A stretch of 32,000 bases of DNA from Candidatus Saccharimonadota bacterium (GCA_965231145.1 OZ246420.1:300001-332000); one strand, 5' to 3'. Shown: positions 1-25,330, counted from the stretch's first letter. A program made the numbers and translations. Notes: generated by a model not told the origin, from the sequence alone.

Positions 1-1787
1 TTTTCCGTGTCTTCTTCTACCGATCTCAGGAGGGCAGCATTAAATTCGATAGGGTAATTTGCTTTCAAATATGCTGTCTGATACGAAAGCATTCCATAGG
101 TCACTGAGTGCGACTTATTGAATGAGTAGAACGCAGCTGGTTCAATCATCTTCTCATAGACCCATCTTGAAGTCTCTTCTTTATAGTTTCTGAACGTCGC
201 AGCTTTTTCGATAAACTGACCTTTAATCTGCTCGATAACCTCCTTAATTTTCTTACCGATACCGCGTCTGAGATTGTCCGCTTCTGCAAGTGAAAATCAT
301 GCCATGGCTTGAACCAAGAACATGAGCTGCTCCTGATAGACGGCAATACCATAGGTGAGGCCAAGGATCGGATCAAGATCTTCTGTGAGTTTTCTTTGTT
401 CTTCTAACGCGGTTTCTTCATCGTACTTTCCAATGAGCAGATCATAGAGTTCAGGGAGCATGTATTCAATTGGCTCTTTCCCATGCTTTCTGTCAATATA
501 TCTTGGAATAAATTCCATAGGTCCTGGACGATACAGCGCACCCATCGCGATAATATCGTTTACGTCAGTTGGCTTTAGTTTTACCAAGAAATTTCTAATA
601 CCATCTCATTCAAACTGAAATACTCATGATGTATCTCCTTTCTGTAACACTCTTTCAAAGGTGTTCTTATCGTCGAGCGCAGGCTCAAACACCATCGTAC
701 GGAAATAATCTTCAAATAATTTCGGCAGCTTCTTGCCGGCTTTTGTATATTTTGCTTTCACGATCTTCATCGTGTTTTTAATAAGCGTCAGCGTTCTGAG
801 GCCCAGGAAGTCCATCTTCAAAAGACCAATGTCTTCAAGGTCGTGTCATTCGTATTGAGTTACTAATTGTTTATGTACTTCTTCGCCTGCCTTCCCTTGT
901 GGCTTTGGAGGATGCTGTACCGGCGCAAAGTGAGTGATGACGTCAGGTGCAATAATGATACCACATGCATGTACACCAGTTCCTCTTACCGTACCTTCGA
1001 GTTTGATCGCTTCGTCAAAAGTCTTCTTTAAGATAGGATCGTTGTCATACATGTTTTTGAGATCTTCCATCTGGTCGATAGACTCTTTGATGGTCTTTTG
1101 TGTAATGAGCGATGCGATGAAATTTGATCTGTCGAACGGTACGCCCATGGTTCTTGCAACGTCTTTAAACGCAGCACGTGCAGCCATGGTCATGTATGTT
1201 CCGATATGTGCAACTTTGTCTTTCCCGTATTTGTCTGCAACGTATTCTACTACCTTGTCTCTCTGTACGTCTTCGAAGTCGACGTCGATATCGGGCATAG
1301 ATACACGAGCAGGATTGAGAAATCTTTCGAAGAGGAGACCGTATGGAATAGGATCTACGTCGGTGATCCCTGTACAATATGCCATGAGAGAACCCGCAGC
1401 AGAACCACGACCTGGACCCACAGAAATATTGTTGTTCTTAGCCCGATTGATAAAGTCCTGTACGATAAGGAAGTATGTGTTATATCCCATTTCCTTTACC
1501 ACTTTGAGTTCATACTCTAAACGTTCGATATAACTTCCTATCGTTAGCTCGCCGTAAAATGTATTTGCATGTTTTTCAATAAACGTTTTTTTATTGTCAG
1601 TGTATGTTGCTCTTGTGAGTTCTCTGAGTTCTTCCGGTGTCGTTTCTGTCAGTTTTTTTACAAGCGTACCTGCAGAGGTAATTTCTACCATATCTAAAAG
1701 ATCTTGGTCTGACCAATGATTTTGTTGAAATCTTCTTCTCATGCCTGCGTAGGACAAATAACGCAGCTCAAATTCAAAAATATCCAT
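1..1787 (-). CDS. dnaE: DNA polymerase III alpha subunit, polymerase-core fragment (palm/thumb/fingers); own ATG at 1787, 3' end runs off the window
   Basis: ORF pieces 846-1787, 624-821 and 297-587 share one frame and join through in-frame TGA (846-848, 624-626, 606-608, 297-299), continuing to position 1. Motifs [40 protein letters not shown] and [17 protein letters not shown]. An in-frame TAG lies directly upstream of the ATG. Confidence 0.9.
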
Positions 1788-1793
1788 CTATTC

Positions 1794-1896
1794 AACTTAA
1801 ATCTTAAGACTAAAACCTAAAAACTTTTATAGGTACTATCATTGATGAAAATTTCCTTAGAAAAGCTTTTAGTTTTAAAGTTTACGTTTTTAGTTC
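1794..1896. repeat. Imperfect inverted repeat built from CTAAAA(C)/GTTTTAG words, upstream of the dnaE core fragment
   Basis: Left arm aacttaaatcttaagactaaaacctaaaaac; right arm gcttttagttttaaagtttacgtttttag. Exact 8-bp pairing of ctaaaaac (1817-1824) with gtttttag (1886-1893); the other words match only in shifted register. Confidence 0.4.
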
Positions 1897-1941
1897 GTTA
1901 GAGCGTTTATAAAAAAATGAGAATGAAAATCTATCAATAAT

Positions 1942-1970
1942 AAAAAAATCCTCACCGATGCAGTGAGGAT
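1942..1970 (-). terminator. Rho-independent terminator after the 1995-2585 gene
   Basis: On the minus strand: stem tcctcac/gtgagga with an 8-nt loop, followed by a T7 run. Confidence 0.7.
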
Positions 1971-1994
1971 GTTGTATTGTTTGCTTAATAGATA

Positions 1995-2585
1995 CTATGG
2001 CATAGGTAGTTCTCTACTGATGATGTCTCCCTTTTCTGTAATAGCTTCTCCGAAGTCAGGCACAAAATTGGTTTTTAGTTTTGCTGCATATGCCTGTATG
2101 CAAGGCTGAGCCGTGATGAGTAAGCGTAAGTGGGGAGAGGGAGGTAATAACTCCCATATGTTCTCCTTCCCGAATTTGGCCCATTTGTCTTGTGTGAGCT
2201 CGTCGCTTTCTTCTATGCTTACGACAAATACATTGTGTTTTGCCAGTTCTGCTTTGATAATGTCTCCGGATTCGCGATTTCTTTGGCGAGGAGCAACAAC
2301 AATGGATACGAAAGTAGGAAGATAGTTTGCCAGTAGAACAGCAGAAGCTTTCATTTGAGCTACGCCTTCTTCCATAAGAGGACCATCTTTCTCTTCAGGA
2401 CTAATTTGATTTTTTTTCTCGTAAATGCCATGGCGAAGAAGAATATTATTTCCAAATCTCCCTCTGCATTCTATTGTACGATGGCTCAGGTCTTGTGTGC
2501 TGGGGAAATTTCCAGCCTGACCTTTAGTAATGCTTCCAGCATAATGCGGGGAAGATAACGGATGTGGGTTTTTGTTCATGTGCAT
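1995..2585 (-). CDS. Histidine phosphatase superfamily (SixA/PGAM-like) protein, putative
   Basis: 196-aa ORF ending in TAG. ILLRHG...GPLMEEGVAQ...SIVVAPRQRNRESG resembles the RHG / LTxxG / SPxxRAxQT pattern of branch-1 histidine phosphatases. The second catalytic His is not obvious (LLITAQP). Confidence 0.4.
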   Translation of the reverse strand: MHMNKNPHPLSSPHYAGSITKGQAGNFPSTQDLSHRTIECRGRFGNNILLRHGIYEKKNQISPEEKDGPLMEEGVAQMKASAVLLANYLPTFVSIVVAPRQRNRESGDIIKAELAKHNVFVVSIEESDELTQDKWAKFGKENIWELLPPSPHLRLLITAQPCIQAYAAKLKTNFVPDFGEAITEKGDIISRELPMP

Positions 2586-2806
2586 ATATGTTTTTGTTGT
2601 TTTATGTGTGTTTGTATATTACTTATTGAATTGAAATTGTCAACATTTGTTCTTTGGGAAGTTTGATTGAGAAATTTTCTGAAATCAAGTAAAAAAGCCA
2701 TAATCAGGGACTCATGAATGAGAATTGTATTTCGATTGCCTTTGCAAATCATTTCACTATCACTATATGATGCAAAAGATTTTTAGTTACTAGTTCGAGA
2801 AACATA

Positions 2807-4726
2807 ATGACAGACAAGAAGCCGCAAGAATATGATGCATCCCAGATTAAGGTACTTGAGGGATTGGAGCCGGTAAGACAAAGGCCGGGTATGTATATTG
2901 GTTCAACAGATGTCAGAGGTTTGCACCACTGTGTGTTTGAAATCGTGGATAACTCAGTTGACGAGGCTCTTGCAGGATATTGTAAGAATATTTCTCTTAT
3001 ATTGAATAAAAATGGGTGGATTACCGTTAAAGACGATGGTCGTGGTATCCCTGTAGATAAACATGCAAAAACGGGTAAGTCTGCTCTTGAAACAGTGTAC
3101 ACCGTCCTTCATGCTGGAGGTAAATTTGAAAAAGGTGCATATAAAATTTCAGGAGGTCTTCATGGTGTGGGTGCGTCAGTAGTAAATGCACTTTCAACGC
3201 ATCTTAAAGTAACAGTTCATAAAAACGGAAAAGAGTACTCTATCAAATTTAAGCGTGGAGTGGCTGAACAAGAACTTCAGGTTATTGGAGACACAAAACT
3301 GCGTGGTACAACAGTAGAATTTCTTGCTGACGATACGATTTTCGAAACGATAAAATATAATTATGAAACCCTTGCTAGCAGGATGAAATATGCTGCATAT
3401 CTGACACCAGGTGTGACATTTACTATTACTGATGAGGCAACAGGAAAGTGCGAAAGATTTTACTATGAAGGTGGTATCAAAACATGGTTAAAGAATCTTG
3501 TTGATGATCAAAAACCCCTTTCTTCTTTGCATTATGTTATGCAAGAGGGAAATGATGTACTTGTCGAAACATCGTTTCAGTATGTCAATTCGAGCAATGA
3601 CAATGTACTTTCATTCGTCAATAATATTAGCACGACGGATGGTGGTACGCATGTAGTTGGTTTCAAAAATGCATTGGTGACTGTTGTCAATGAAGTAGCA
3701 AAAGCAAAGGGGAAGATTGATAATAAGATCGGTGAATTCCAGCCATCAGATATTACAGAATGACTCTATGCTATCGTTACGGTGAAGATCCCTGAACCTC
3801 AGTTTGAAGGACAGACAAAGGGAAGGCTCGGTAACAGTTACGTGAAGAAAGAGGTAGAAGATATTATGACTGATTACCTCAGAAAAAGTTTCAATGAAAA
3901 CGAAGAAGAATTTAATTCGATCCTTGAAAGGATCGTGCTCTCTGCGAGAGCAAGACTAGCGGCAAAATTCGCTCGTGAAACGGTTTTGAGAAAGAATGTG
4001 CTTGCAGGAGGAGTTCTTCCAGGAAAATTATCAGACTGTTCAAAGCGTGGAAGACATGGAACAGAGATGTATATTGTGGAGGGAGACTCAGCGGGTGGTA
4101 CAGCGAAGCAAGGACGTGATAGTGAGTTCCAAGCAATCCTTCCGCTTAAGGGTAAGATCTTAAATACTGAGCAGGCGATGGTACAGCGTATCATGGCAAA
4201 TGACGAAGTGAAAGCACTTATCACTGCTATTGGAGCAGGACTCAAGGATATGTACGATGAAGAAAAGCTTCGTTATGATAAGATCGTGATCATGACCGAT
4301 GCCGACGTAGACGGTGCACATATTAGAACACTTCTTCTTACGTTCTTCTTCAGATATATGAGACCGCTTATTGAAAATGCGCACTTGTATATCGCTGTTT
4401 CGCCTCTCTACAAGGTTAAACAAGGAAAGAAAGAGCAGTATATCTATCCTACGGATGATGCTGACCTTTCAGTCGCGTTGAAGAAATATGGATTTAAAAC
4501 TGATGAAAAATATGAGATCCAACGTTATAAGGGTCTTGGAGAAATGAATGCGGAACAGCTTTGGGATACAACGATGGATCCAGCAAAGAGACGCATGCTT
4601 CAGGTAACGGTAGACGACGCAGAGGAAGCTGATAAGCTCTTCCGTATCCTCATGGGTGAAGATGTTCTCAGTAGAAAGCATTTCATCCTGACACATGCGA
4701 AGAATGTGAAAGACTTAGATGTCTAA
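2807..4726 (+). CDS. gyrB: DNA gyrase subunit B
   Basis: ORFs 2807-3763 and 3782-4726 share a frame, joined by TGA 3761-3763 at the conserved E-G-L position ([25 protein letters not shown]). Motifs GLHHCVFEIVDNSVDE, GGLHGVGASVVNALS, EGDSAGG and DADVDGAHI. TAA stop. Confidence 0.97.
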
Positions 4727-4732
4727 AACATA

Positions 4733-4807
4733 GTTCATAAAGTTTATAAAGTTCGTAAAGTTAAAAATCTTCTCTACTTTCTACTTTATGAACCTTTAAC
4801 TTTTAAC
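4733..4807 (+). repeat. ATAAAGTT-word / CTACTTTATGAAC element, copy 1 (between gyrB and ruvA)
   Basis: gttcataaagtttataaagttcgtaaagttaaaa..ctactttctactttatgaacctttaacttttaac. GTTCATAAAGT (4733-4743) is the exact reverse complement of ACTTTATGAAC. The core is shared with copies at 6751, 22837 and 29144. Confidence 0.8.
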
Positions 4808-4821
4808 TGGTACGAAGTACA

Positions 4822-5373
4822 ATGTTTCATCTGTTCAATGGTCAGTTAGAGGTTCATGGAAACAAGAATTTTCTGACAAATGAGCTGTGTGGGATAGAGG
4901 TACAGTATAACGGAAAAGCAAAAAAAGGAACATGGTTCCTTTTTCCGTATATGGATGAGAATAATAAAACTATCCATTACTTTGCCTTTGATACGATTGA
5001 TCAGAAGCTTGTCTTTGAGCAGATGATGAAGATCTCAGGCATTGGTCCAAAGACTGCATTTGCTATCGCGGCTATAGATAAGAAAGAACTCCAGCATGCC
5101 ATAGACACCTTTGATGTCAAAGCGGTCCAGAAGATCCCTGGAGTGGGTCCCAAGACAGCAAAGAGGCTTCTGGTAGAGCTGAAAGCGACGCTCCGTTCAT
5201 CGGATATTCAAAAGCTTGAGATAGACGAAAAGCTTTTCAAAAGTATTGTGGCTACCATGAAGAACATGGGTTGGGACGCCAGGGCAGTCAGATCGAAGCT
5301 GCAAGAGTGTCCAGTGATATTGGACAAAGCACATGTGCAGGAAATTGTGAAATGGCTTATATCTGCTGTGTAA
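4822..5373 (+). CDS. ruvA: Holliday junction DNA helicase RuvA
   Basis: 183 aa with two helix-hairpin-helix motifs (ISGIGPKTAFAI, IPGVGPKTAKRLLVELK). TAA stop. Confidence 0.85.
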   Translation: MFHLFNGQLEVHGNKNFLTNELCGIEVQYNGKAKKGTWFLFPYMDENNKTIHYFAFDTIDQKLVFEQMMKISGIGPKTAFAIAAIDKKELQHAIDTFDVKAVQKIPGVGPKTAKRLLVELKATLRSSDIQKLEIDEKLFKSIVATMKNMGWDARAVRSKLQECPVILDKAHVQEIVKWLISAV

Positions 5374-5387
5374 TATAATCAATGTAC

Positions 5388-5420
5388 AAAAAAACCTCCA
5401 ATCATGGAGGTTTTTCTTTT
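5388..5420. terminator. Bidirectional rho-independent terminator (ruvA on plus, small ORF on minus)
   Basis: A-run, stem cctcca/tggagg with a 4-nt loop, then a T-run. Confidence 0.75.
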
Positions 5421-5434
5421 ACCCGAAGGGTGAA

Positions 5435-5557
5435 TTACTCACCAGCTTCTTCTGCTACTACTTCTTCTTCAGTTCCTTCAGTCATATCCTCAGCAGTATT
5501 TGCTTCAGTTGCAACAGTTGTTACTTCTTCTTCGTTGTTCTCGATCATATCGTTCAT
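5435..5557 (-). CDS. Small acidic protein (40 aa), hypothetical
   Basis: ATG..TAA ORF MNDMIENNEEEVTTVATEANTAEDMTEGTEEEVVAEEAGE, bracketed by terminators at 5578-5603 and 5388-5420. Below the ORF-track length cutoff. Confidence 0.3.
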   Translation of the reverse strand: MNDMIENNEEEVTTVATEANTAEDMTEGTEEEVVAEEAGE

Positions 5558-5577
5558 CGTGTCCTCATTTAAGGGAT

Positions 5578-5603
5578 AAAAAAAGTACTACTCAGTAGTA
5601 ACT
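5578..5603 (-). terminator. Rho-independent terminator after the dnaE-N / small ORF unit
   Basis: Minus strand: agttactac-tga-gtagtact (8 bp with one bulge) followed by T7. Confidence 0.6.
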
Positions 5604-5678
5604 GATGAATGGTACCTATTATTTTTGATAAATCAAGGGATTTCTGGCTTTTTACTATGAGAGTATTATGCGGCGTTA

Positions 5679-5810
5679 TTATCGTGTTTCTTCCTCTTCA
5701 TACTCTTCTTCTTCATTTTCGCCATTTCTTGCCTTCAGGTTATCTTCGAGTCCTATATTTTCGCTTTCAATATGAAAGCCGTGTCTTTCGAGTTCTGCGT
5801 TGGTAAACAT
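5679..5810 (-). CDS. Small acidic protein (43 aa), hypothetical
   Basis: ATG..TAA ORF MFTNAELERHGFHIESENIGLEDNLKARNGENEEEEYEEEETR. It starts 25 nt after the dnaE-N stop and is followed by its own terminator. Confidence 0.3.
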   Translation of the reverse strand: MFTNAELERHGFHIESENIGLEDNLKARNGENEEEEYEEEETR

Positions 5811-5835
5811 GGTCAATTGCTGCTTATCGTATAAA

Positions 5836-6753
5836 TTAGGCCTTCTGAGACTTTGCATAGAGCTCTGCGATATAGTCAGGACTCTTGTAGACCGGGAAGA
5901 GGAGCTGATGTAGTGGTATGTTTATATCAATGCTATCTATGAGCTTCTGATTATTTCCAATCCAACCGTCTATCTGTTCTTGCTGATAACCATTGGTTTT
6001 GAGGGTCTGAACAATTTCATCTTCACTCATGATGTGCCATTCGCCTTCTTTTTTCTTTCTGCCATGCTCATAATATTGCTTACCATCCTTGATGCATGTT
6101 GCAATATCGGCCGCATCTTTTTCGTCTGGTGAGATATAATGGAAGTTATTATCTACGACACAGGGTATAGAAAGGCTCTCGCTGAGTGTCAGAATAGCAC
6201 TATTTATTTTTTTGAGAGCTGGTACAGCTGTGTATGCTTGCGCTGTGACTTCAAAAAAGAATTGTTCTTCCGGGAAATATCAGCGATGGATACTCATCAG
6301 TTCTTCGATTTTCTTTGCGTTTTCTCACTGTTGGAGTAATCGCGCCAGATAGCTTCATTCTCCACCAATAAGGGCAATCAGATGCGTTGATCTCTCTTTC
6401 AGTTTTTCCAGCGGAAAATAAGGAATAGAAGCAGTAGAAGCTGTGTGCGCCTCCGATACTATTTCAAGAAGGGCGCGGTAGCCGTCATAGTTTTTCGCAA
6501 GAAGTACCGTATAACATGGTTTCTCCATTTTACCTTCTCTGACCACATGCGTACAGAGTTCAACACCCATAATAGGTTTCAAGCCTTCTTTTTTGGCTAC
6601 CTCATACTGCTGGATGCTTCCGTACATACCATTATAATCGGAAATAGGCATAGTCTCTTGCCCTAAACTTTTGATCTTTTTTGCTATAGGTTTTATGTCT
6701 CCTATGGCTTGCAGCAATGAGTAGTGACTATGGCCGTGAATATGATTGAACAT
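5836..6753 (-). CDS. dnaE: DNA polymerase III alpha subunit, N-terminal PHP-domain fragment (about 305 aa), encoded as a separate gene
   Basis: Single frame through TGA at 6355-6357, 6322-6324 and 6277-6279. MFNHIHGHSHYSLLQAIGDIKPIAKKIKSLGQETMPISDYNGMYG..GLKPIMGVE is the DnaE PHP N-terminus; IPCVVDNNFHYISPDEKDAADIATCIKDGK is the later PHP motif. It ends LFPVYKSPDYIAELYAKSQKA-TAA, with a second in-frame TAA three codons later. Start taken at ATG 6753, because the upstream ATG at 6783 lies inside the repeat. Confidence 0.88.
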
Positions 6754-10413: not shown

Positions 10414-12285
10414 ATGACTCATCTTCAAGAACTCTTACAGGAGATACAACGTATACCTACTGCTGACCTTAACGCTGTAAAGCGCGCTAAGAGAGATTTT
10501 GCGAAAAAATATAATATTTCTGACATCCCGAGTAATGTTGAACTTCTTAAAAAATACCGCTCATTAGTTGCCTCGGGGGACTATGAGGCCAATAAACATT
10601 TAGAATCACTTCTCAAGAAAAGAGCCATTCGCTCTGATTCGGGCATTGTGCCTATTCAAGTTTTGACGAAACCTTTCTGGTGTCCAGGGAAGTGTATCTT
10701 TTGTCCGAACGATGCAACCATGCCGAAGAGTTACATCAATACTGAACCTGGTGCCATGCGCGCATTGCTCAATCAGTTTGATCCTTACAAGCAAGCATAC
10801 AATAGATTACTATCGCTTCACTTAACAGGTCACGATACCGATAAGATCGAAATGATCGTGCTCGGTGGTACGTGGGATGTCTATCCAAATGACTACAAGC
10901 GTGATTTCCTGAAGTGACTCTATGACGCGTGCAATACGTTTGATCAATTTCTTGCAACGTATGAAAAGCATAATATCCGTGGCGGAAACTATAATATTGC
11001 AGACCTTAATATTGCATTCCCGGAGACGATAGAAGAGTCTATGGAGATCAATGAGACAAGCGCTCATCGTATCATCTGACTCACGATTGAAACAAGACCA
11101 GAGTATATGACTGATGAAAACTGCCAGATGTGGCGTAGTCGAGGAGTGACTCGTCTGGAGATGGGTTTGCAATCGATGTATGACGACGTGCTCGATGCTA
11201 ACAAGCGTGGTCATTCTGTGCAGCAGGCAAGAGAAGCGATGCATAAGATGCGTCAATATGGCTTCAAGTTTTCTATTCACTTCATGCCGTGACTCTATGG
11301 TTCAACGGTCGATAAAGATGTCGAAACCTTTCGTCTCGCATATAACGATCCGTACATCAAACCCGATGAGATTAAGTTCTACCCAACATCTGTTATCCCA
11401 AATACAGAGCTCTATGAACTCTATAGAAAAGGTGCATATAAACCGCTAGAAACAGATGATATTGTACATATTATTCGTACGGTACAATTGGATATCATTC
11501 CTTCGTACACAAGAATTAAACGTCTCATTCGTGATATTCCGTCGACGGAAATTGCTGCCGGAAGCAGCATCACAAATCTCAGACAGTTGACAGAAATAGA
11601 TCTACTTGCTGATCTTTCAAGGGATGAAGGGATGAGGGCTAAGTTGTATGAAAGGCTCTATGAGAATGAAAAGACATATGACTCATTGGCGCAGTATTTG
11701 TCTGTCCGGACTTGATCCGGACACCATCCTGATGCTGAATCAAGTTCAGCATGACAAGCTATAGAGACAAGTATTATTGGAACAGCGCCAGATATGAAAT
11801 CTCCAAGAAATTTTGTATCACTCGATACAAGAGCTCGTGAGATTAGAAACAGAAAGCTTAAAGCAGAACAAGAAGTGGCGAATCTGGTTATAAGAAAATA
11901 CCAATCATCGGTTGGTGAGGAATATTTTATTAGTTATGAAGACGAGCTTTGATATCTGTATGGATTTACGAGATTGCTTTTGCCAAAAGAAGGAGAGACT
12001 ATCGAACGAGCAGGACTTGGGGCAGGAACAGCGCTCATCAGAGAGCTTCATGTCTACGGACAGTTAGCTAAGATCCAAAACATAGATGTTGATGCAGATA
12101 AAAGCAAGACTCAACATAGAGGATTTGGTTCAAAACTTATGTATGCAGCTGAACAGATAGCAGCTCATTTCTGATATAAGAAGTTATCAGTTATTTCTTG
12201 AATATGAGTCAGAGAGTACTATAAGAAAATAGGATATCACAAAGAGGGAACTTATATGATAAAGCAGCTAGCATCTAGCAAATAG
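10414..12285 (+). CDS. elp3: Elp3-family radical SAM / GNAT acetyltransferase (tRNA uridine-34 carboxymethylation enzyme homolog)
   Basis: Single 623-codon frame through TGA at 10915, 11077, 11290, 11713, 11752, 11950, 12172, 12199 and 12205; TAG stop at 12283-12285. Motifs CPGKCIFCPND (radical SAM cluster), II-G-LTIETRPEY, GVTRLEMGLQS, HFMP-G-L, RIKRLIRDIP, QHRGFGSKLM and ISGIGVREYYKKIGY (GNAT end). Confidence 0.85.
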
Positions 12286-12902: not shown

Positions 12903-12938
12903 CTTTGTTTTAGAAATATTTTTTGTATAATTTGCCGT

Positions 12939-13844
12939 ATGATAGTAGGTAATAAGCAAGTACAAGAGGTCATGCGTCAGTATGTCCAGACAGTGAAAGC
13001 AAGCGGTGTGGTAACGGCTCCTTTTATGATTTTTCATGGGCCGGACTATGTCGGAAAGAGTAGTTTTGCGCTCGATCTTGCGCAAGAGCTTGTGGGTCCT
13101 TTTGGATATAGCGATATCTTGCATATTAAAGACATGTCGCATGTTATTGGAAAAAAACATACGTTGAAAGTAGAGCAAGGAGACGACATCGAATATGATA
13201 ATGGATTGAAATATGAAGACCTTGGTGCAAGAGAGATCCGTGAATGGATGGCGAAGACAGCAGCAAATGAATATAAAGTATTGATATTAGAAAATATAGA
13301 ACGTATGACGGTGAGTGCCGCAAATGCCTTCCTTAAGTACTTTGAAGAGCCGTTTGCAAAGACGTTGATCATTGCGACGACAAGAAATAAGAGTGAGATA
13401 CTAGAGACTATTATCTCTCGTGCGTTGCTTGTCGCGTTCTCCTATGTGAGCGATGAAGAAGTGAAGACCTTGCTTCAGCGTGAATATCCTGATACACCAG
13501 AACCAAAGCTCCATGCGTTAGTAGATCTCGCAGCAGGAAGACCATGATTTGTCCTGACGCTTATGGGTAAAGACAAAGAGATGATTGTTGATCTGCAGGA
13601 TAGCGTGCTTCGTTTTATCGCCATGCATCAGCAGTGACCGCGCGTAACAGGCGTCTTCCGTCTGCTCACAGAAATGCAAAAGAAGTGATATCTTGAGGTG
13701 TTTCTCGATACGTTGCTTTATCACTATGAGCGTGAACAGAACTATCAGATGATCTCAGAGCTTATTGAGACAAGAAAGAAACTTGGCTACAATATCTCTG
13801 GAGAAAATGTGCTTTTTAGCTTTGCATTGCACGAAGCTCAGTAA
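12939..13844 (+). CDS. holB: DNA polymerase III delta-prime subunit (clamp-loader AAA+)
   Basis: FMIFHGPDYVGKSSFA (Walker A-like), KVLILENIERMTVSAANAFLKYFEEP, IIATTRNKSEILETIISR. Frame continues through TGA at 13545, 13635 and 13686 to TAA 13842-13844. Confidence 0.8.
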
Positions 13845-17602: not shown

Positions 17603-19069
17603 TTACAATCCATCTACCATAACCATGAGATCTTGCTCAAGCTGCTTATCGTGTCTCATGAGTTTTTCAAAGTTTTCGATAGCGTAGATCACTGTTGCGT
17701 GGTTACGCCCACCAAAGTAGTCTCCAATCTTTTCGAGAGTCCGGTCAAAGTACTTTTTCGCGATAAACATAAGCATCTGTCTTGTTTGGGAAATCTCTTT
17801 TTTTCTGCTATCGCCTCTGACGTCGTTGACAGAAATGTTATAATAATTGCATCCTTTTTCTACGATCTTGCTGAAAGCACCGCTACTTCTATTGCTGACT
17901 GCGGTTGGCTGATCGTTATCTTCTTCCTTGACCTTGTAACCAAGTGTGCTCAGAGAATCAAGGATGTCATCCTTATCGAGCTCTTTGTCGACAAGTGTTC
18001 TTCTCGTCATGAGGATATTGAGTACGCCTTCCAGCTCTCTGACGTTGGTTTTGATATGCTTCGCGATAAGTCCAAGGTTTTCATTATCAATACTTTCGCC
18101 ACGTGTAGCGAGCTTTGACTGGAGGATTGCAACTCTTGTCTCATAGTCTGGTGCCTTAATGTCGCACACAAGTCCAAATGCAAAGCGTGTTCTGAGTCTT
18201 TCTTCGAGGAGTGTTAGCTCTCTTGGAGCACGATCTGATGTAAGGATGATCTGCTTCTTCTTTGACTGAAAATCATTGAAGATATTGTGAAATACTTCCT
18301 GTGTCTTTTCTTTCTCAGCGATAAACTGGATATCATCGACCATGAGGACATCGATATTATCAAGTCTGACCATAAGATCGTGCATCTTGTTTTTTCTGGT
18401 TGCATCCACGATTTCATCGATGAGCTTCGTTGCAGGCAAATAGACGACAACCTTATCAGGGTAAAGTCTCATGATCTCATTGCCGATGGCTTGCATAAGG
18501 TGAGTCTTTCCCAGTCCTACTTGACCATAGATGAAAAGAGGATTGTAGACGAGACCTGGCTTCTCAGCCGTCTGCTGTGCTGCGTTAAATGCAAGTTTAC
18601 TGCTTGATCCTGCGACAAATGTGTCGAAAGTAAATTTGTCGTCGAAGAGGATACCAAACTGGTCGGTAAATGTCTTCTTTGTTTTTCCTTCGATTTTGAT
18701 TTCTTTTTCTGGTTTGTCAGAGATGTTAAGTACTTTTTTGAAATCTACGAGAAGGTCGTGTTTCCCTGTTTGAAATGGTCCGTAGCAGACAAGCTTTACC
18801 GAAAACTGAGGGTTATAGAGTTCTTCTATAGCGTTATTGAGGCCTTTTGTGAGAAACTTCTTGATCTGAGAGAGAGAAAACTCGTTTGCCACACCAATGA
18901 AAATATGTTTTGCTTTTTCGTCGATAGAGATGATTCCGCTTTTGCTGAGGAAGGTGAAGATCTTTTTCGGGTCATGATTTTGCCCAAGATGCACCACGAC
19001 TTTTGTCCAGAGGTCTTTGAGAAATTGTTTCTGCTCTGAGTCGTACTCATTGATCATATCTAGTAGCAT
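17603..19069 (-). CDS. dnaA: Chromosomal replication initiator protein DnaA
   Basis: 488 aa uninterrupted. YNPLFIYGQVGLGKTHLMQAIGN (Walker A), DVLMVDDIQF (Walker B), ILTSDRAPREL, C-terminal RKKEISQTRQMLMFIAKKYF...IGDYFGGRNHATVIYA (DNA-binding domain). Confidence 0.97.
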   Translation of the reverse strand: MLLDMINEYDSEQKQFLKDLWTKVVVHLGQNHDPKKIFTFLSKSGIISIDEKAKHIFIGVANEFSLSQIKKFLTKGLNNAIEELYNPQFSVKLVCYGPFQTGKHDLLVDFKKVLNISDKPEKEIKIEGKTKKTFTDQFGILFDDKFTFDTFVAGSSSKLAFNAAQQTAEKPGLVYNPLFIYGQVGLGKTHLMQAIGNEIMRLYPDKVVVYLPATKLIDEIVDATRKNKMHDLMVRLDNIDVLMVDDIQFIAEKEKTQEVFHNIFNDFQSKKKQIILTSDRAPRELTLLEERLRTRFAFGLVCDIKAPDYETRVAILQSKLATRGESIDNENLGLIAKHIKTNVRELEGVLNILMTRRTLVDKELDKDDILDSLSTLGYKVKEEDNDQPTAVSNRSSGAFSKIVEKGCNYYNISVNDVRGDSRKKEISQTRQMLMFIAKKYFDRTLEKIGDYFGGRNHATVIYAIENFEKLMRHDKQLEQDLMVMVDGL

Positions 19070-19124
19070 CTCTCCCGTACATATAAAATAAATCTATTAG
19101 CCGAGCTTATGAAAGTCATCAGAG

Positions 19125-24352: not shown

Positions 24353-25306
24353 TTACATTTTTATCCTACCTTTTCCTGTCTTTTCTATTTTTCCTAATTT
24401 CATGAGCAGTGGCTCGATGTCGTCTTCGACAGACTTTTCAGATATGCCGAGTTTCACTGCGATAGTCTTTACTCCGACCGGAGTGCCATCACATTCATCA
24501 AGTATATCCAGGTACTTTCTATGCAATGGTGTAAGGCCGCCTTTCTCTATGTTTATCCAGCGGTCAAAATCATTCCATAGCTCTTCAAGGAAGTGAAAGA
24601 TCTTTCCGTCGTGCTTTGTATGGGAAATAAGATAATCTCTTATCTTTACAATAAAGTTATGGATTTCTCTTGGCGTTGATTCTACTTTTTCTTCGATCTT
24701 TTCGAGTATGCTATGTGCAGCTTCAATAGTATAGAGCTTCATATATCTTTTGATGATCTCAAGCTTTTCTGCTTGTGAGTAATCTTGGAAATGAAACTTA
24801 TAGACAAATCTGTTTTTGAGTGGCCCAGCGATTGATTCCATCTTTGTCGTCGCCCCAATGAGCGTAAACGCATTGATGGGAATTCTGACATTTCCACCTT
24901 CCGGCATAACCATATCGATGACAAAGTCTTCCATAGCGATATAGAGGATTTCTTCGATATTTGGCTTGAGTCTATGAATTTCATCGATGAAAAGGATGTC
25001 TCCTTGTTCGATATTATTGAGGATAGATATTAACTCAGAAGGTTTAGTGATGGCATAGCCAGTTACTATTTTGATATTTACTCATAGTTCTTTCGCAACA
25101 ATCTGTGCAAGTGTTGTTTTACCGTGTCCGCTTTCTCCTGAAAAGAGTACATGCCCCAACGGATGCTGGCGCTGTTTTGCAGAGCTGACCGCAGTATGTA
25201 AAATTCTTTTAATTTCTTCTTGTCCAACAAACTCCTTAAGTAAAGAAGGTCTTGTTCCTATCTGTGCTTCCTGCTTCGTCTCGATGCTTATCTTCTTTAT
25301 TTCCAT
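24353..25306 (-). CDS. ruvB: Holliday junction DNA helicase RuvB
   Basis: ORFs 25082-25306 and 24353-24934 share a frame, joined via TGA 25082-25084. RPSLLKEFVGQEEIK, LFSGESGHGKTTLA (Walker A), ILFIDEIHRL (Walker B), LIGATT, winged-helix C-terminus. TAA stop. Confidence 0.93.
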
Positions 25307-25330
25307 CTTTAATCTTACTTACTATTAAAA

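Follow-up and report, generated by a model that had tools for sequence, protein, structure and literature searches.

A Pol III alpha subunit probably encoded in two pieces: separate PHP and polymerase core genes in a TGA-recoding bacterial lineage

The gene dnaE, which codes for the alpha subunit of DNA polymerase III (Pol III), is present as two non-adjacent genes in a 32,000-nucleotide stretch of DNA from a Candidatus Saccharimonadota bacterium (GCA_965231145.1 OZ246420.1:300001-332000). This whole stretch is referred to below as the window, with positions counted from its first letter. The first gene (5836-6753, minus strand) codes for a stand-alone PHP subunit of 305 amino acids (aa). The second (1-1787, minus strand) is the 5' part, 595 codons in length, of an alpha core gene that lacks the PHP domain and continues past the window start. 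Based on comparisons of sequences and predicted structures, we consider it likely that these genes specify a natural, two-piece DnaE1-type alpha subunit, in which the PHP module and a separate polymerase core assemble non-covalently. What is new here is an intein-free two-gene DnaE1 that is conserved across a candidate phylum.

The open reading frame (ORF) for the PHP protein ends ...LFPVYKSPDYIAELYAKSQKA at a TAA (5836-5838), with a second in-frame TAA four codons on, whereas the core starts at an ATG at 1787 that is directly preceded by a TAG codon. An earlier note, prepared from this DNA alone, had claimed that dnaE is split at the PHP/palm boundary into two genes, and this is confirmed: the break comes just after the PHP domain, and each gene is translated separately. 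Its further contention that a single transcript is impossible also holds, because intervening genes, including gyrB and ruvA on the opposite strand, lie between the two pieces and stops are found at both ends. TGA is a sense codon throughout the window (code 25); under the standard bacterial code one obtains many short ORFs and a broken gyrB. The two dnaE pieces contain three and four in-frame TGA codons, and these genes, like gyrB, form unbroken frames only when TGA is taken as sense, at positions which are occupied by Gly in homologues. For example, the TGA in the core segment QYE(TGA)HDLE coincides with the family consensus QYDG. In-frame TGA at Gly positions is the mark of the code 25 lineage (Absconditabacteria/Gracilibacteria, TGA = Gly), and in-frame TGA is present in 39 of the 40 related PHP genes described below. 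The public translations of the relatives often show W at these positions, suggesting that they were made with TGA = Trp.

The Pfam PHP domain (E=4e-26) is the sole Pfam domain of the 305-aa protein. In profile alignments, the PHP family spans residues 6-286 of Escherichia coli alpha, ending ...RLGEYFLPQFPTGD, and residues 7-289 of the Thermus aquaticus (Taq) protein. The stand-alone protein is equivalent to residues 1 to about 286 of E. coli alpha, followed by a C-terminal tail helix of 12-15 residues. The codons of this tail (5839-5883, minus strand) specify SPDYIAELYAKSQKA, a family-specific helix that follows the invariant LFPxY motif. In the family alignment L285, F286, P287, Y289 and I295 are invariant, and L298 and Y299 are nearly so. 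An AlphaFold2 (AF2) model of the orthologue P0002, with a predicted local distance difference test (pLDDT) score of 85.9, shows the tail as a helix spanning residues 293-305. Foldseek searches with this model recovered PHP domains of Pol III alpha as the best matches, with query-normalised template-modelling scores (TMq) of 0.75-0.80, as against at most 0.41 for other PHP enzymes. Going by this model, the stand-alone protein is the PHP module of DnaE and not a different kind of PHP protein.

The core gene product matches the Pfam domains DNA_pol3_alpha (PF07733, E=1.5e-92, residues 70-329) and finger (PF17657, E=3e-48, residues 332-530). It was aligned to residues 378-848 of Taq alpha and 320-794 of E. 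coli alpha, its first ~80 residues being too divergent for alignment to the solved structures, and the match of the core-family profile begins at residue 319 of E. coli alpha or 379 of the Taq protein. The profiles of the two families thus end at E. coli residue 286 and resume at 319 (Taq 379), which agrees with the placement of the break at the PHP/palm boundary by the earlier note. As in other DnaE1 proteins, the catalytic Asp motifs of the palm are intact (SMPDIDVDF and LLKMDFLGL). The DnaE1-type fingers and (HhH)2 region are likewise retained in the family: PF14579 is present in the orthologue P0030, a protein of 998 aa without a PHP domain, and in most of 120 homologues, the window itself stopping short of this region. 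The one departure from the DnaE1 definition is that the PHP domain is not in the same polypeptide as the polymerase. The start codon and the head helix of the core (20 residues; 1728-1787, minus strand) correspond to the first palm helix of contiguous DnaEs, of the EKYFRRLCYDGLHRYY type. Among 31 aligned orthologues M1 and R9 of this head are invariant, and E5, F6, E7 and L8 are nearly so. The first palm helix is followed by an insertion of ~55 aa at about core residues 25-80 (window 1548-1715, minus strand). All split cores and the contiguous Gracilibacteria-type DnaEs have this insertion, which the aligned Saccharibacteria and Firmicute DnaEs lack; a profile comparison with hhalign showed a weak, non-significant likeness between it and the PHP tail.

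To define the junction, the N-terminal fragment's tail and the C-terminal fragment's head from four split genomes were concatenated and aligned with contiguous relatives. The concatenated fragments are colinear with the contiguous DnaEs P0289, P0300 and P0238, with no overlap. The head is an ordinary first palm helix, comparable to EKYFRRLCYDGLHRYY in Firmicute DnaE and EELFFRKLCWIGTIERY in P0209. The tail SPDYIAELYAKSQKA corresponds to a linker insertion of 20-27 residues, which P0289, P0300 and P0238 have and which P0209 and the Saccharibacteria and Firmicute proteins lack. In P0300 the counterpart of the tail in the alignment is the linker helix 289-305, and that of the core head is helix 315-332. 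In an AF2 model of the contiguous P0300 (pLDDT 88.8), the helix 289-305, the loop 306-314 and the helix 315-332 all have pLDDT values above 90. On this model the break maps to the loop between two helices of the linker region, just after the PHP domain and at the start of the palm. The termini newly created by the split are among the best conserved parts of both proteins. The route to this state was probably stepwise, with the linker first expanding, the gene then breaking in the loop, and the two resulting genes finally dispersing.

A search with the PHP protein recovered 29 homologues with 36-77% identity, all of about 265-327 aa. The corresponding search with the core recovered 752 proteins at E<=1e-120, and the best 120 of these (55-85% identity) were examined: none contains PF02811, and nearly all of the full-length ones begin with MxxxEFELRY. 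Related loci were then scanned with one genome per species and TGA taken as sense, and the PHP ORF was found to be complete and stand-alone in 40 of 52 loci. The layout of the window recurs only in its two nearest relatives (JAUIDC010000001.1 and JAGOPC010000003.1), where the core lies 4.2-4.6 kb downstream on the same strand; in the other 38 of the 40 loci no core gene was found within the available flank of up to 10 kb. The two genes are ~82 kb apart on the 461-kb contig JBAYUS010000001.1, where the PHP gene maps to about 265 kb and the core to about 348 kb. A profile built from database sequences only was also used to search 1.84 billion representative proteins (clusters at 50% identity). 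The first ~60 representatives are almost all ~300 aa long and match the profile end to end with scores of 470-222 bits. Below these the matches change abruptly to full-length DnaEs, 1150-1250 aa in length, which score at most 213 bits and match profile positions 1 to ~295, never the tail. The stand-alone PHP proteins include a member from Candidatus Vampirococcus lugosii, a described Absconditabacterium. In public annotation the two halves appear as 'PHP domain-containing protein' and 'DNA polymerase III subunit alpha'. In comparison with the closest relative (L005), the nonsynonymous and synonymous differences (pN/pS) are 0.17/0.92 for the PHP gene and 0.085/0.74 for the core, and both genes are under purifying selection. 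Many loci deposited under the name 'uncultured Candidatus Peribacteria bacterium' (L010, L013-L018, L022, L024-L029, L036, L039, L041 and L052) combine in-frame TGA with a split dnaE, and the Peribacteria label is probably wrong for these assemblies.

The best contiguous matches to the two fragments are P0209 and P0300, both named Candidatus Gracilibacteria, together with P0238 and P0289. In a neighbour-joining tree of the core, all PHP-less cores form one clade, with P0289 as sister, followed by P0209, P0300 and P0238, and with other bacteria outside. The gene for P0289 is a single ORF of 1331 codons on its contig, and the contiguous sister DnaEs range from 1102+ to 1331 aa. The simplest reading of these relationships is one old fission in the ancestor of Absconditabacteria/SR1, after its separation from the contiguous Gracilibacteria-type lineages. 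A further locus, labelled 'Ruminococcus' (L045), was considered as a close contiguous relative and rejected: it has 47.6% G+C, its TGAs apparently occur only upstream of the start, and it seems to code for an ordinary Firmicute-type DnaE1. Certain gene associations are retained across these lineages. An amidase-PHP gene pair is kept in SR1 genomes and a ruvA/gyrB-core group in the P0038 clade, and the layout seen in the window may accordingly be old. The alaS gene is found within 3-8 kb of dnaE at the P0289 locus, and it lies close to the PHP gene in an SR1 genome and to the core gene in the P0038 clade (L059 1-985, L002 2129-3709 and L060 858-2486). This proximity may be left over from the gene order of the ancestor.

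A nine-residue metal-binding motif, HHDHEH[C/H]DH, has been used as the criterion of an active PHP domain (PMC12926913). The corresponding positions in the window protein read H-H-Q-Y-E-Y-G-N-H, with four of nine canonical residues, so that the motif of the PHP proofreading exonucleases of the Taq and Mycobacterium tuberculosis (Mtb) DnaE1 type is not preserved. This degeneration is family-wide: of 70 family members, 60 have Tyr at site 4 and 62 have Gly at site 7. The PHP metal sites of the contiguous sister DnaEs are degenerate as well. The statement in the earlier note that both halves keep intact motifs is consequently true of the polymerase core, with its PDIDVDF and KMDFLGL motifs, and fails for the PHP metal site. 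By the published criterion the PHP domain is classed as inactive, and this loss is older than the split. Because the nine-residue site is degenerate, the PHP subunit probably has a structural role and is not a nuclease.

Several other explanations of the two genes can be set against a natural two-piece polymerase. The source is evidently metagenome-type sequence, and one might invoke a misassembly, a chimeric contig or a rearranged dnaE pseudogene, with the functional polymerase encoded elsewhere. However, both ORFs recur with unchanged ends in hundreds of contigs and in 40 species-level genomes that were assembled independently, and they are unlinked in most of these genomes; pN is far below pS in both genes, the catalytic residues of the core are intact and its start Met is invariant. 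As the two-gene arrangement is conserved and under purifying selection, we set artefact and decay aside as extremely improbable. No more credible is the idea that the products are rejoined covalently by a split intein, for which cyanobacterial dnaE offers a precedent (cited in PMC3919608), or that the mRNAs are trans-spliced. The window contains no intein or Hint Pfam domains, and no HN motif followed by a +1 Cys, Ser or Thr was found at the fragment junctions, in line with the absence of an intein reported by the earlier note. Neither the N-intein nor the C-intein of the cyanobacterial type is present: the core begins directly with extein-type sequence, the fragments leave no extra sequence, and together they cover every residue of the contiguous relatives. 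The N-terminal fragment ends 15 residues after LFPVYK in the window and 12-20 residues after LFPxY across the family, i.e. its tail is of variable length. Scans of the window against Rfam families, including group I and group II introns, and for tRNAs gave no matches. Since intein sequence is lacking and the ends are colinear with contiguous DnaE, the two products are expected to remain separate polypeptides. It is somewhat less improbable, though still quite unlikely, that the fission proceeded through duplication of dnaE or of a short segment with complementary loss, leaving overlapping copies of a helix. Such a rearrangement with a short duplication had been proposed in the earlier note, and both ends are indeed amphipathic helices with a similarly placed aromatic residue (YIAELYAKS versus FELRYLSYA). 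Nevertheless, P0300, P0238 and P0289 hold both helices in tandem, and full-length DnaEs do not match the tail of the PHP profile. Comparison of the PHP and core families by hhalign detected no similarity between tail and head, the lone match lying elsewhere with a non-significant probability of 0.4%. Because the tail is a separate linker helix that already stands in tandem with the head helix in contiguous relatives, the duplication is unsupported.

A different kind of alternative accepts the fission but not the reassembly: the core might replicate DNA unaided, the PHP protein having lost its binding to the core and acquired another role, as a phosphoesterase or with another partner. We regard this as unlikely, though less so than the explanations above. 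The PHP and core genes are unlinked in most genomes, so that co-regulation is not obvious, and stand-alone bacterial PHP proteins with other roles do exist, such as the PolX-like PHP proteins in PMC12926913. Against this, the metal site required for PHP enzyme chemistry is degenerate, and the fold and sequence of the protein are specific to the DnaE PHP domain. Moreover, its most conserved stretch is the C-terminal LFPxY...I..LY, which leads into the palm in contiguous DnaE, and the matching N-terminus of the core is nearly invariant. One PHP gene and one core gene are found wherever both contig ends could be checked.

The interpretation as a two-piece polymerase with a structural PHP subunit has some observations weighing against it. 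In the PHP metal site H1, H2, E5 and H9 are mostly kept, and although the degenerate site argues against nuclease activity, it is no proof of its absence. The neighbour-joining trees carry no support values, and that of the PHP domain is poorly resolved and too weak alone to establish a single origin. Two family members also deviate from the stand-alone form. In P0158 (653 aa, on a 28.5-kb NCBI contig) PHP residues 1-308 run on without a stop into an extension of ~340 aa with a membrane-protein-like start (MSDLAFFVWLVLLF...), which could reflect a lost stop codon or a gene fusion. In the locus L048 (8671-9871), from one metagenome-assembled genome, the PHP gene lies in two overlapping reading frames, owing either to a sequencing-error frameshift or to its being a pseudogene.

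In the two-piece polymerase that we favour, one gene would supply the PHP module with its short C-terminal helix. The second, separately transcribed and translated, would supply the palm-thumb-fingers-(HhH)2 core, whose first residues would form the first palm helix. The two proteins are predicted to reassemble non-covalently into an alpha-like heterodimer, with the tail LFPxYxSPxxIxxLY, the head MxxxEFELRY and the normal PHP-palm interface as putative docking elements. The inactive PHP domain of E. coli serves as a docking site for the epsilon subunit; in a comparable manner the PHP subunit here most likely stabilises the core or acts as a binding platform or adaptor, and is unlikely to be a proofreading nuclease. 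A more far-reaching and doubtful suggestion is that the PHP module is a dissociable, separately expressed subunit throughout the candidate phylum, its amount or binding being regulated independently of the core. If true, the PHP subunit could be an exchangeable stabiliser, or an adaptor recruiting a proofreader, in a type of replisome that is not known from any bacterium studied. A clade-wide natural fission of this kind would show that the PHP module can be supplied in trans. It would provide a ready-made system for studying the role of inactive PHP domains in core stabilisation, allostery and proofreader recruitment, and the relatives appear to display a stepwise path to gene fission. In practical terms, domain-based surveys and completeness checks of Absconditabacteria will misjudge dnaE, as its halves are annotated separately.

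The region between the two genes has the content listed in the earlier note. A histidine-phosphatase-like gene (1995-2585, minus strand; Pfam His_Phos_1, E=3e-5) lies on the same strand as the dnaE pieces, and is separated from the core gene by an intrinsic-terminator-like hairpin and T-run (1948-1970, minus strand) with a 10-bp stem, five GC pairs and a TTTTTTATTA tail. On the plus strand are gyrB (2807-4726), a single ORF only with TGA as sense, and a ruvA-like gene (4822-5373; Pfam HHH_5, E=7e-13). The L001 orthologue of the former carries GyrB Pfam domains, and the latter occupies the same position in L001. Two small acidic ORFs follow on the minus strand. One (5679-5810), directly downstream of the PHP gene, codes for 43 aa from an internal Met and begins MFTNAELERHGFH..., its counterpart in L005 being MYTNKELERNGFH...; the other (5435-5557), of 40 aa, ends ...EEAGE, as does its equivalent in L005, and has a similar ORF in L001. 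The acidic ORFs of L005 are at 11015-11146 and 11255-11395, and no such ORFs were found in relatives more distant than the window's own clade. Of the three terminators claimed in the earlier note, that at 1948-1970 is clean; the other two (about 5387-5413 and 5577-5603, minus strand) are hairpin and T-run sites recognised by direct reading of the DNA, the second of them GC-poor. In some SR1 genomes (L002 10868-11233, L007, L011, L023 and L033) an ORF of ~120 aa is found directly 3' of the PHP gene, with the motifs ...IQEEFSRS.N.RTACF... and ...PEKDTQP.DEEKENLFK.L and without a Pfam match on record. No universal partner ORF downstream of the PHP gene was found among the related loci compared. 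Elsewhere the window contains the replication and recombination genes dnaA (17603-19093, minus strand; Bac_DnaA, E=5e-60), holB (12903-13844, plus strand; DNA_pol3_delta2, E=2e-20) and ruvB (24353-25318, minus strand). No dnaQ-like gene was seen among the window ORFs checked.

The PHP/core split is not described in the literature searched in full text, in the surveys PMC3919608 and PMC12926913, or in the Vampirococcus genome paper, and PMC12926913 makes no mention of bacteria of the candidate phyla radiation (CPR). The proteins encoded by the two genes share with the canonical DnaE1 alpha subunits (E. coli, 2HNH/5FKU; T. aquaticus, 2HPI; M. tuberculosis, 7PU7) the domain order of PHP, palm-thumb-fingers and (HhH)2, and the same catalytic Asp motifs. 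They differ from them in that the PHP domain is a separate polypeptide, usually from an unlinked gene, with an extra linker helix at the break and, following the first palm helix, the ~55-aa insertion. In its degenerate metal site the PHP domain resembles that of E. coli and not those of Taq and Mtb. The closest relatives of both fragments, i.e. the contiguous DnaEs of sister TGA-recoding lineages (P0300, P0209, P0238 and P0289), share the ~55-aa insertion. In these the protein is coded by one ORF, whereas the split clade has a stop, a start and other genes in the loop after the linker helix. To our knowledge, in every C-family replicative polymerase studied so far the PHP domain is covalently attached at the N-terminus, or is internal in PolC. 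The cyanobacterial dnaE has its break at a much later point in the polymerase, and the intein fragments borne by its two halves ligate them into a single chain. It likewise consists of two genes at distant loci, but here the split is directly after the PHP domain and an intein is absent. PolB1/PolB2 of Methanothermobacter thermautotrophicus, which are encoded by two genes without inteins, form a non-covalent heterodimer that functions as a replicative-type polymerase. This enzyme belongs to family B and not C, comes from a different domain of life with a different split point, and has no evolutionary relation to the present case. Finally, the isolated PHP constructs of E. coli alpha (PDB 4GX8/4GX9, an alpha-epsilon chimera) show that a PHP domain of ~270 residues folds independently, and the model of the stand-alone PHP protein matches them with a template-modelling score of about 0.72, normalised by either length; these constructs are engineered and are not natural genes.

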